IMG/VR virus record: IMGVR_UViG_2617270945_000015
Length of the DNA stretch: 33,207 nucleotides
Strand: one strand, 5' to 3'
Source: a virus
Lineage: Duplodnaviria > Heunggongvirae > Uroviricota > Caudoviricetes
The position numbers were made by a program. Shown piece by piece: positions 9,001-12,000 of the stretch. Positions within the stretch are counted from its first letter, which is position 1. The number at the start of each line of letters is the position of its first letter.

Positions 9001-12000
9001 AGCCCTGGATACCATCAGTGATAATCTTCGGCGGATCCTGAAAGATTACGGCAATGAGGCTGTACATGTCCTGTACGGAACAGGCGTAGATGGCGGAAAC
9101 ATCACCAACTCAAACGTCCCGTACCGTCTGATGAACTCTTGCGGTGGTTTTCTCAGTCGCTATGGCAGCTACAGTACCGCACAGATCAGTGCCGCAATGA
9201 GTTATATGTTCGGTGCCAATGATGGCAACAGCCCGGATGATATCGCCAATACGAAACTGGTCGTTATGTTCGGAAATAACCCGGCAGAAACGCGGATGAG
9301 CGGCGGTGGTGTCACTTACTACGTCGAGCAAGCCCGCGAACGTTCAAACGCACGCATGATCGTCATCGATCCACGTTATAACGACACTGCTGCCGGGCGT
9401 GAAGATGAATGGCTGCCCATTCGCCCTGGCACCGATGGCGCACTGGCCTGTGCGATTGCCTGGGTACTGATTACTGAAAACATGGTCGATCAGCCATTTC
9501 TCGACAAATATTGTGTTGGTTACGATGAAAAAACGCTGCCCGCCAACGCACCACGTAACGCGCATTATAAAGCCTATATTCTGGGCGAAGGGCCTGACGG
9601 CATAGCTAAAACGCCGGAATGGGCAGCAAAAATCACCAGCATCCCGGCAGAAAAAATTATCCAGTTGGCACGAGAGATCGGTTCAGCAAAACCTGCTTAT
9701 ATTTGTCAGGGTTGGGGGCCACAACGACATTCCAACGGCGAGCAAACATCCCGCGCTATTGCCATGCTTTCCGTTCTCACCGGCAACGTCGGCATAAACG
9801 GCGGCAACTCAGGCGTACGCGAAGGTAGCTGGGATCTGGGGGTAGAATGGTTCCCGATGCTCGAGAATCCTGTTAAAACGCAGATTTCCGTCTTTACATG
9901 GACAGATGCCATCGACCATGGTACGGAAATGACCGCGACCCGTGATGGTGTTCGTGGAAAAGAAAAACTGGATGTCCCCATCAAGTTTTTATGGTGCTAC
10001 GCCAGTAACACATTGATCAATCAACATGGCGACATCAATCACACCCATGAGGTGCTTCAGGATGACAGCAAGTGCGAGATGATTGTTGGCATTGACCACT
10101 TCATGACGGCCTCGGCTAAGTATTGCGATATCCTGTTGCCCGACCTGATGCCAACAGAGCAAGAAGACCTTATCTCTCATGAATCTGCAGGGAATATGGG
10201 CTATGTGATCCTCGCCCAACCCGCAACCTCAGCAAAATTTGAACGCAAACCCATCTACTGGATGCTGAGTGAAGTCGCCAAACGCTTAGGACCAGACGTT
10301 TATCAAACCTTTACTGAAGGTCGCAGTCAGCATGAATGGATCAAATATCTCCATGCGAAAACGAAGGAACGTAACCCTGAGATGCCCGACTACGAGGAGA
10401 TGAAAACGACCGGGATCTTTAAGAAAAAATGCCCGGAAGAACACTACGTCGCTTTCCGCGCATTCCGTGAAGATCCACAGGCAAACCCGTTGAAAACACC
10501 TTCGGGGAAAATCGAAATTTATTCTGAACGACTGGCGAAGATTGCAGATACCTGGGAATTGAAAAAAGATGAAATTATTCATCCCCTTCCTGCGTATACC
10601 CCAGGTTTTGATGGCTGGGACGATCCCCTGCGGAAAACCTATCCACTGCAGTTAACGGGCTTCCATTACAAAGCGCGTACCCACTCCAGCTACGGCAATA
10701 TTGATGTGTTACAGCAGGCCTGCCCACAAGAGGTGTGGATCAACCCCATTGATGCTCAGGCACGCGGTATCCGTCATGGCGATACCGTGCGGGTATTTAA
10801 CAATAATGGAGAAATGCTGATTGCCGCAAAAGTGACTCCGCGTATTCTGCCTGGCGTTACCGCCATCGGGCAAGGTGCGTGGCTTAAAGCGGATATGTTT
10901 GGTGACCGGGTCGATCACGGCGGCAGTATCAATATTCTGACCTCTCACCGCCCTTCACCGCTGGCAAAGGGAAACCCGTCGCACAGCAATCTTGTCCAGA
11001 TCGAAAAGGTTTAAGGAGTAGCCCATGACCACACAATATGGATTTTTTATCGATTCCAGCCGCTGTACTGGCTGTAAAACCTGCGAACTGGCGTGCAAAG
11101 ATTTTAAAGTTGGTTACGTATCGTTTAAAATCAATTAGATAGCCCGTCATTTCTGCGCTCACACGTCCCAACATTGAAAAACATGCAAAGCTTTGTAAGC
11201 CGATGCAAAGCTTTGTGTGTCTCACTTTTGTCCCAATACCAATCCGAATCCACCCTTTGTCATCATTGAGAAATGGCAAGGAAGAAAAGGATGTTACTGC
11301 ACGATTTGACAAATCCGCCAGAGCTATCGCATACTGACCGCACTACAACGTCAGCGGTCAACCGCACCCGATAGCTTTGCGGCTTTTTTATGCCTGTTTA
11401 CAGGTATCGCCATATCAATGGCGGGTCGAGAGAGCCTAATACAATACCCTTTCGGGAAATACGCTCCGCCGTCTGACGCGGTAGTTGAAGCCCGCCCCCC
11501 CACTAAGGTGGCAGTCAATACTAAAACGTCAGGAGTCATAATTATGACTAATCAACTCATTCCCGTTTTCGATGGAACCATCAACAACGAACCAGTTTTA
11601 CTTTGCAATGCTCGCAATCTGCACGCTTTTCTTGGTATTGGTAAAATGTTTGCTCACTGGATCAAGGACAGGCTGGGTGAATATGGATTCGTTGAAAATC
11701 AAGATTTTGTGATTGCTTGCCAAAATTGGCAAGCAAAAGGTAGAGGCGGTCACAACCGCAAGGAATACCACCTCACCCTCGACACAGCCAAAGAGCTTGC
11801 GATGGTTGACGACTGCGTCCAATACTGACTATACTCCGCGCCGAGGCCTCGAAAACCTCCCAAAAGCGGATTAAACCAACCCCGTCAGTGTTGGATTTTT
11901 TATGCCTGTTATTCAGTGATAGCACAGTGTGCGGTCACATCCCCGATCAATGTCGGGAGGGCGACGAATACAACACCCGCAAGGGGAATAAGTCCGCGGT

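Follow-up and report, generated by a model that had tools for sequence, protein, structure and literature searches.

Integration of a lambdoid prophage within ynfG and its expected consequences for the ynfEFGH-dmsD operon

The stretch of DNA considered here is a 33,207-nucleotide virus record from IMG/VR (IMGVR_UViG_2617270945_000015; "the window" denotes the whole of this stretch), in which a prophage interrupts ynfG, a gene of the ynfEFGH-dmsD operon. The junction is very probably an attR attachment site made by an integrase, by which YnfG would be left non-functional and YnfEFGH inactive, and by which ynfH-dmsD are removed from the ynfE promoter, in a manner that excision could reverse. The operon is a single FNR-activated unit with an FNR site at -40.5 (PMC3688515). 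Within the enzyme YnfG serves as electron-transfer subunit, and the maturation of DmsA, YnfE and YnfF depends on DmsD (PMC5203670, PMC10609526).

The junction within ynfG

On the + strand of the window the ATG of ynfG lies at 11025-11027, and translation of 11025-11138 yields 28 native codons (MTTQYGFFIDSSRCTGCKTCELACKDFK), nine foreign codons (VGYVSFKIN) and a TAG at 11136-11138. This bears out a preliminary description of the same DNA, which had native YnfG sequence stopping after codon 28 (nucleotide 11108) and the frame closing nine codons into phage DNA. When its nucleotides are aligned with L002, a K-12-type locus in which ynfG is uninterrupted, the window is identical through 11109, one base beyond codon 28, and unrelated thereafter, placing the breakpoint at 11109 in ynfG; intact YnfG (205 residues) goes on with KDFKDLGPEVSF at the point where the frame in the window turns to phage codons. 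Pfam recognises a single short Fer4 motif only (residues 6-25) in the 37-residue fusion, and in two genomes with the same junction the Prokaryotic Genome Annotation Pipeline (PGAP) describes those 84 nt as "4Fe-4S binding protein, incomplete, missing C-terminus". The junction string is identical in all 10 of the 10 related loci checked, and a chance origin is excluded because the string recurs in related loci, in complete genomes and in the public assembly collection.

From 11110 onwards the window consists wholly of phage DNA, at least 22 kb of it, as judged from matches to phage records and to PHROGs, the latter including an antirepressor and DksA-like, Ea22-like and 933W-type giant proteins past the junction. 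The best phage matches are the Shigella phages POCJ13 (POC-J13) and 75/02, which carry the Shiga toxin (Stx) type Stx1a; identity is about 92% across approximately 90% of the phage part, starting from the first base past the junction. The earlier placing of the junction inside ynfG, with phage DNA beyond it, is upheld by both sets of matches. The late genes point towards the junction, which is therefore the attR end of a short-tailed lambdoid prophage of the 933W type; its integrase is expected at the far end.

Comparison of the four attachment sites was possible by taking attB from L002, attL from two related loci (L004 and L014), attP from an IMG/VR contig (L005) and attR from the window. 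attB reads ...GCAAAGAT-TTTAAAG-ATCTTGG..., attP reads ...GCAACAAC-TTTAAAG-TTGGTTA..., attL reads ...GCAACAAC-TTTAAAG-ATCTTGG... and attR reads ...GCAAAGAT-TTTAAAG-TTGGTTA..., such that the flanks exchange exactly at the core and the homology between attP and attB amounts to 7 bp only. The attP contig was recovered by scanning IMG/VR with an exact 34-nt probe composed of the phage flank of attL, the core and the phage flank of the window; this one contig matches, and contains int, 40 bp, the core and then the P' sequence of the window. A contiguous attP was not found in the GenBank phage collection, because the ynfG-phage records there are prophages linearised at the att core. The window is identical to the contiguous attP contig for 228 nt 3' of the core, and the P arm of that contig shows 0-1 differences in 1300 nt from the two attL loci. 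The integrase beside attP and attL has 387 residues, belongs to the tyrosine recombinase family (Pfam PF00589 Phage_integrase, E 1.5e-45) and ends about 40 bp before the core. Judged from these sequences, the window junction is a true attR of a site-specific prophage with a tyrosine integrase.

The only point in favour of an origin other than integrase action, be it assembly artefact, rearrangement mediated by an insertion sequence (IS) or illegitimate recombination, is that a single prophage end lies inside the window. The breakpoint is the same to the base across independent complete genomes and thousands of assemblies, a reciprocal attL with the same 7-bp core exists, a contiguous attP lies beside a tyrosine integrase gene, and site-specific integration of POC-J13 in MG1655 has been demonstrated experimentally (PMC4193171). 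Such an origin has a negligible probability, and the four-way att comparison, as a comparison of sequences, refutes it.

In the preferred reading, the tyrosine integrase of a 933W/Stx-type lambdoid phage has recombined attP with attB in ynfG between codons 27 and 29. The host side retains ynfE and ynfF with their FNR-dependent promoter region and the 37-residue YnfG stub, and on the far side, as read in related genomes, int runs into the ynfG remnant (codons 29-205), ynfH and dmsD. An exact repeat of 7 bp forms the core, so that ynfG would be restored if the prophage were excised precisely. The flanks of the attB core form an imperfect inverted repeat (AAAGAT/ATCTTg), which may represent core-type sites. 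In addition, the P' arm contains two exact ATGCAAAGCTTTGT repeats (11183-11196 and 11203-11216) and GTCCCA-type repeats (11165-11176 and 11218-11235), the latter type being present in the P arm also; the positions are L005 coordinates minus 1156; these repeats are candidate arm-type sites for Int or an accessory protein. A weak mir-19 match on the ATGCAAAGCTTTGT inverted repeat was set aside as a chance match.

The far prophage end and the frequency of the insertion

Only the first 22 kb of the prophage lie in the window, and attL was therefore read, about 60 kb away, in related complete genomes. No complete genome of the collection is a full match to the window; Escherichia coli O10:H32 NMBU-W12E19 comes closest, at 99.1% identity over 94%, and O104:H4 2011C-3493 is 98.1% identical over 92% of 9000-33207, a query that takes in host and phage DNA on both sides of the junction. 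Both relatives carry, on one strand, int, a gap of 38-52 bp, the ynfG remnant, ynfH and dmsD. The longest in-frame open reading frame (ORF) at attL has 184 codons and a GTG start (VVSNNFK-DLGPEV...), to which the phage contributes only V-V-S-N-N, without a cysteine motif, ahead of the F-K encoded by the core; no evident purine-rich Shine-Dalgarno sequence precedes the GTG in the attL loci of the related genomes. The ORF lacks residues 1-26 of YnfG, and thus C14, C17, C20 and C24, the first CxxCxxCxxxC group, which is why the N-terminal Pfam Fer4 match is lost.

These observations bear on the proposal that integration reconstitutes the gene, a phage copy of the displaced ynfG segment keeping ynfG and the operon intact at one end. 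Restoration of this kind is common among phages that integrate within genes (phage 21 and e14 in icd; phages using tRNA sites), and PGAP presents the attL ORF of O104:H4 as an apparently intact 184-residue B subunit. Against it, the attR frame is shut after the nine foreign codons, the attL ORF has neither a Shine-Dalgarno sequence nor the first cysteine group nor the N-terminal Fer4 match, the same ORF is flagged as "missing N-terminus" in NMBU-W12E19, and attP and attB are homologous over 7 bp only. Reconstitution is highly improbable and, on the 96 attL sequences seen, is refuted for the related genomes. The preliminary description had allowed that the other prophage end might supply a compensating 5' segment of ynfG; in the related genomes this proviso fails. 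The inspection of the other junction that it proposed has accordingly been made in relatives, where ynfG is not rebuilt, the attL of this particular genome lying beyond the window.

RefSeq is not uniform in its treatment of this ORF. In some genomes, including several O104:H4 records, it stands as an intact 184-residue protein, WP_000254426.1, "DMSO/selenate family reductase complex B subunit" (DMSO, dimethyl sulphoxide); elsewhere, as in NMBU-W12E19, the closest relative, PGAP calls the ynfG remnant at attL a pseudogene.

Of 5426 complete E. coli genomes, at least 76 carry the attR junction (at least 80% cover of a 1.1-kb probe); beyond 228 nt the P' arm is variable, which makes this figure a minimum. 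At attL, the boundary between int and ynfG' occurs in 96 complete E. coli genomes, and 89 have int-ynfG'-ynfH-dmsD contiguous. In the index of the public assembly collection, 11138 blocks contain the exact 37-residue stub. Approximately 1.8% of complete E. coli genomes have the insertion, the O104:H4 outbreak clone among them.

Expected consequences for YnfEFGH and dmsD

The phage provides no substitute for the first 28 codons of ynfG, which would leave no functional YnfG and an inactive YnfEFGH selenate reductase during lysogeny. In related genomes the 16 cysteines of YnfG are not found in one polypeptide, group I being on the stub seen in the window and groups II-IV on the attL ORF. In four-cluster ferredoxins of the DmsB type each cysteine group gives ligands to two clusters and every group is needed; with the groups split in this way, neither YnfG fragment should be functional. 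Loss of YnfG function, and hence of the YnfEFGH selenate reductase, is strongly indicated.

The ynfE promoter region remains on the ynfE-ynfF-ynfG' side of the prophage. The FNR-box-like site upstream of ynfE, TTGATATGGATTAA, belongs to a pattern with four matches in the window against 1.7 expected, which is no enrichment, and only its position upstream of ynfE therefore gives this copy meaning. The gene order of the related genomes shows ynfH and dmsD uncoupled from FNR control, and their expression would need read-through from int or internal promoters. The preliminary description had the genes downstream of ynfG uncoupled from the ynfE promoter: their separation holds in the gene order of the related genomes, but silencing of dmsD would be a further step, with int read-through possible.

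A long hairpin followed by UUUUUU lies past the core in the P' direction, where it would stand downstream of int in the excised phage. Its folding free energy is -30.8 kcal/mol (z -4.3; 0 of 200 shuffles as stable), and a comparison of four loci finds no variation in the outer stem and U-run, the variable part being the inner stem-loop. From its structure and its position, which resembles that of lambda tI/sib, it is a candidate int terminator or retroregulator. In the prophage the hairpin faces the ynfE-ynfF-ynfG' transcript and would halt host read-through ahead of the antirepressor genes. As int is then no longer followed by the hairpin and runs into ynfG'-ynfH-dmsD, some int read-through into dmsD is plausible. 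A related and rather unlikely possibility is that this hairpin swap rewires both transcripts, the FNR-driven ynfEF transcript ending before the antirepressor and int read-through feeding ynfH-dmsD. Promoter and terminator consensus scans at both junctions gave counts no better than shuffles and missed the long hairpin, so that no weight is attached to them.

A rival suggestion is that the split is largely silent, with ynfH and dmsD still expressed by int read-through or from an internal promoter, DmsABC biogenesis and DMSO respiration unaffected and only YnfEFGH lost. The int gene has the same orientation as ynfG'-ynfH-dmsD and ends only 38 bp ahead of them, no convincing terminator separates it from ynfG', the hairpin that follows it in the free phage is now at the other prophage end, and ynfH has a GGAGG of its own before its ATG. 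Moreover, ynfH and dmsD are annotated as intact and contiguous in the 89 lysogen genomes, and the insertion is present in successful clones such as O104:H4. The YnfEFGH enzyme makes a small contribution in laboratory tests. On the opposing side, the promoter scan found no site 5' of dmsD. Repressed prophages of the lambda type normally transcribe int poorly (pI/pL control), which counts against read-through, and integration is perhaps too recent for decay, which makes the intact ORFs weak evidence. A largely silent split is a serious contender, with a little less than an even chance.

Several points weigh against the reading of an integrase-made attR that inactivates YnfEFGH and separates ynfH-dmsD from their promoter. 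The attL of this particular genome lies outside the window and could be degraded or deleted, and the AST198 prophage is partly decayed. DmsB might partly replace YnfG; subunit exchange between the DMSO- and Ynf-type enzymes was reportedly described by Lubitz and Weiner in 2003. No expression or phenotype report on any ynfG lysogen was found in the searched literature, and the promoter scan upstream of ynfH and dmsD found nothing above chance, which is weak evidence either way.

Surrounding features, known systems and significance

The coordinates of the features are collected in Table 1. The host gene order in the window is that of K-12 (rspB-rspA-ynfABC-speG-ynfD-ynfE-ynfF). At its left edge, positions 1-930 hold an IS1 copy and a remnant tyrosine-integrase gene directly left of rspB, the edge of a decayed prophage; AST198 has an excisionase and an integrase at the position left of rspB, and the exact arrangement occurs in only 14 complete genomes.

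Table 1. Features of the ynfG junction and of the DNA on either side (window positions unless a related locus is named)
Feature	Position	Strand	Basis or remark
FNR-box-like site TTGATATGGATTAA	5991..6004	+	about 100 nt 5' of ynfE ATG; 1 mismatch to TTGAT-N4-ATCAA
ynfE, selenate/tellurate reductase catalytic subunit, intact	6104..8530	+	ORF list; annotation of same DNA in related loci
ynfF, paralogous catalytic subunit, intact	8588..11014	+	ORF list; annotation of related loci
Truncated ynfG fusion ORF, 37 residues	11025..11138	+	codons 1-28 native, with Cys group I (C14, C17, C20, C24)
att core TTTAAAG, 7 bp	11103..11109	+	identical in attB, attP, attL and attR; crossover region
P' arm of attP, now in attR	11110..11314	+	identity to attP contig L005; repeats given in text
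Long hairpin then UUUUUU, candidate terminator	11315..11389	+	210-280 nt past att core; downstream of int in excised phage
sRNA-Xcc1-type (small RNA) structured elements (Rfam RF02221), two	11420-11504 and 11952-12037	+	each about 40 nt 5' of an AntA-domain antirepressor ORF
Truncated ant' and full antirepressor ant	~11544-11828 and 12078-12701	+	phrog_377 "anti-repressor Ant" E 4e-90; first phage genes past junction
TraR/DksA-like zinc finger, DUF4752, Ead/Ea22-like and DUF551-like genes	12749..15514	+	distal to attP, directed away from junction
933W-type late/tail region: giant protein, Lom and tail-tip fibre genes	15970..33207	-	directed toward junction
2784-residue LPD38/LPD5 protein	15970-24324	-	matches phrog_616 end to end; PHROGs: no known function
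N-terminally truncated ynfG at attL	L004 (O104:H4 2011C-3493) 5204-5758; L014 9660-10199	- (L004 copy)	RefSeq annotation

Within the phage DNA the antirepressor gene is tandemly duplicated, the first copy being cut after the AntA domain, and copy number and state vary among lysogens. With a gathering score of 53 bits, the two sRNA-Xcc1 copies reach 51.5, just below it, and 73.4, above it; their placement looks like that of a leader, structured and conserved, at the 5' side of phage ant genes rather than of an independent sRNA. In its C-terminal part the 2784-residue ORF weakly matches DarB-like antirestriction proteins. A perfect 9-nt tandem repeat, CATCAGCTT x 8, occupies 15700-15771, between this giant gene and the DUF551-like one, and falls inside ORFs of 81 codons (15601-15846, - strand) and 109 codons (15566-15895, + strand) encoding KLM and ISF repeats, respectively, and the locus is possibly length-variable.

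The statement in the preliminary description that ynfG is a reported insertion site of lambdoid and Stx phages is supported by four sources. POC-J13 (Stx1a) integrates site-specifically in S1742/ynfG in S. flexneri 2457T and MG1655, as detected by polymerase chain reaction across both junctions (PMC4193171), and phage 75/02 of S. sonnei uses the ynfG site (PMC5447701). In addition, the RM10410 stx1a prophage has ynfG at both flanks (PMC10562709) and the stx1a prophage of CIDM-EC20-1974 lies in ynfG (bioRxiv 10.1101/2024.05.07.593058). The POC-J13 (KJ603229) and 75/02 Stx (KF766125) records share the host gene and the junction with the window, both ending at the core, and their gene order is also that of the window (ant, TraR-like, Ea22-like, giant LPD5/LPD38 protein, Lom, tail fibre); at only about 92% identity the window phage is therefore a related phage with the same integrase module, and a different phage. 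Stx-converting phages have stxAB between Q and the lysis genes, a region that lies outside the window; in its nearest complete-genome relatives, O104:H4 and NMBU-W12E19, the annotation shows no stx in the interval from Q to the esterase gene. The ynfG prophage of O104:H4 2011C-3493 has an attR and core identical to those of the window, and the Ea22/DUF551 block differs between strains that carry the ynfG prophage.

The arrangement resembles lambda Int/attP in having a tyrosine integrase beside attP, a 7-bp core, repeats in the P and P' arms, and a hairpin with a U-run past attP on the int strand. Unlike lambda, for which attB is intergenic between gal and bio, attB here is inside a coding sequence; the roles of the arm repeats and hairpin are suggested by position only. 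Phage 21 and e14 in icd likewise place a lambdoid phage inside a host protein-coding gene, and they bring a substitute 3' end, so that icd stays functional. At ynfG, in contrast, there is no substitute segment and the gene is disrupted into the 37-residue attR product and the 184-residue attL ORF. This is another instance of a known pairing of prophage and site, with recombination of the lambda Int type that does not reconstitute the gene.

The ynfG insertion is real, was correctly read in the preliminary description, and is ordinary and already known, so that it carries little weight beyond correct annotation. As the junction is a known Stx-phage attachment site, it is useful in typing the prophages of Shiga toxin-producing E. 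coli and Shigella, and the inconsistency of RefSeq over the YnfG remnant at attL has been brought to light. S-oxide reductases have recently been tied to host-associated stress resistance (PMC12096835). The point of biological interest, not addressed in the searched literature, is DmsD-dependent reduction of DMSO and S-oxides in lysogens, besides selenate reduction. It is conceivable, if rather unlikely, that ynfG lysogeny constitutes negative lysogenic conversion, in which YnfEFGH is removed and DmsABC biogenesis is crippled through polarity on dmsD, to be reversed by precise excision. If true, this conversion would extend to Stx1a-positive Shigella and to about 2% of E. coli, the O104:H4 outbreak clone being among the latter.

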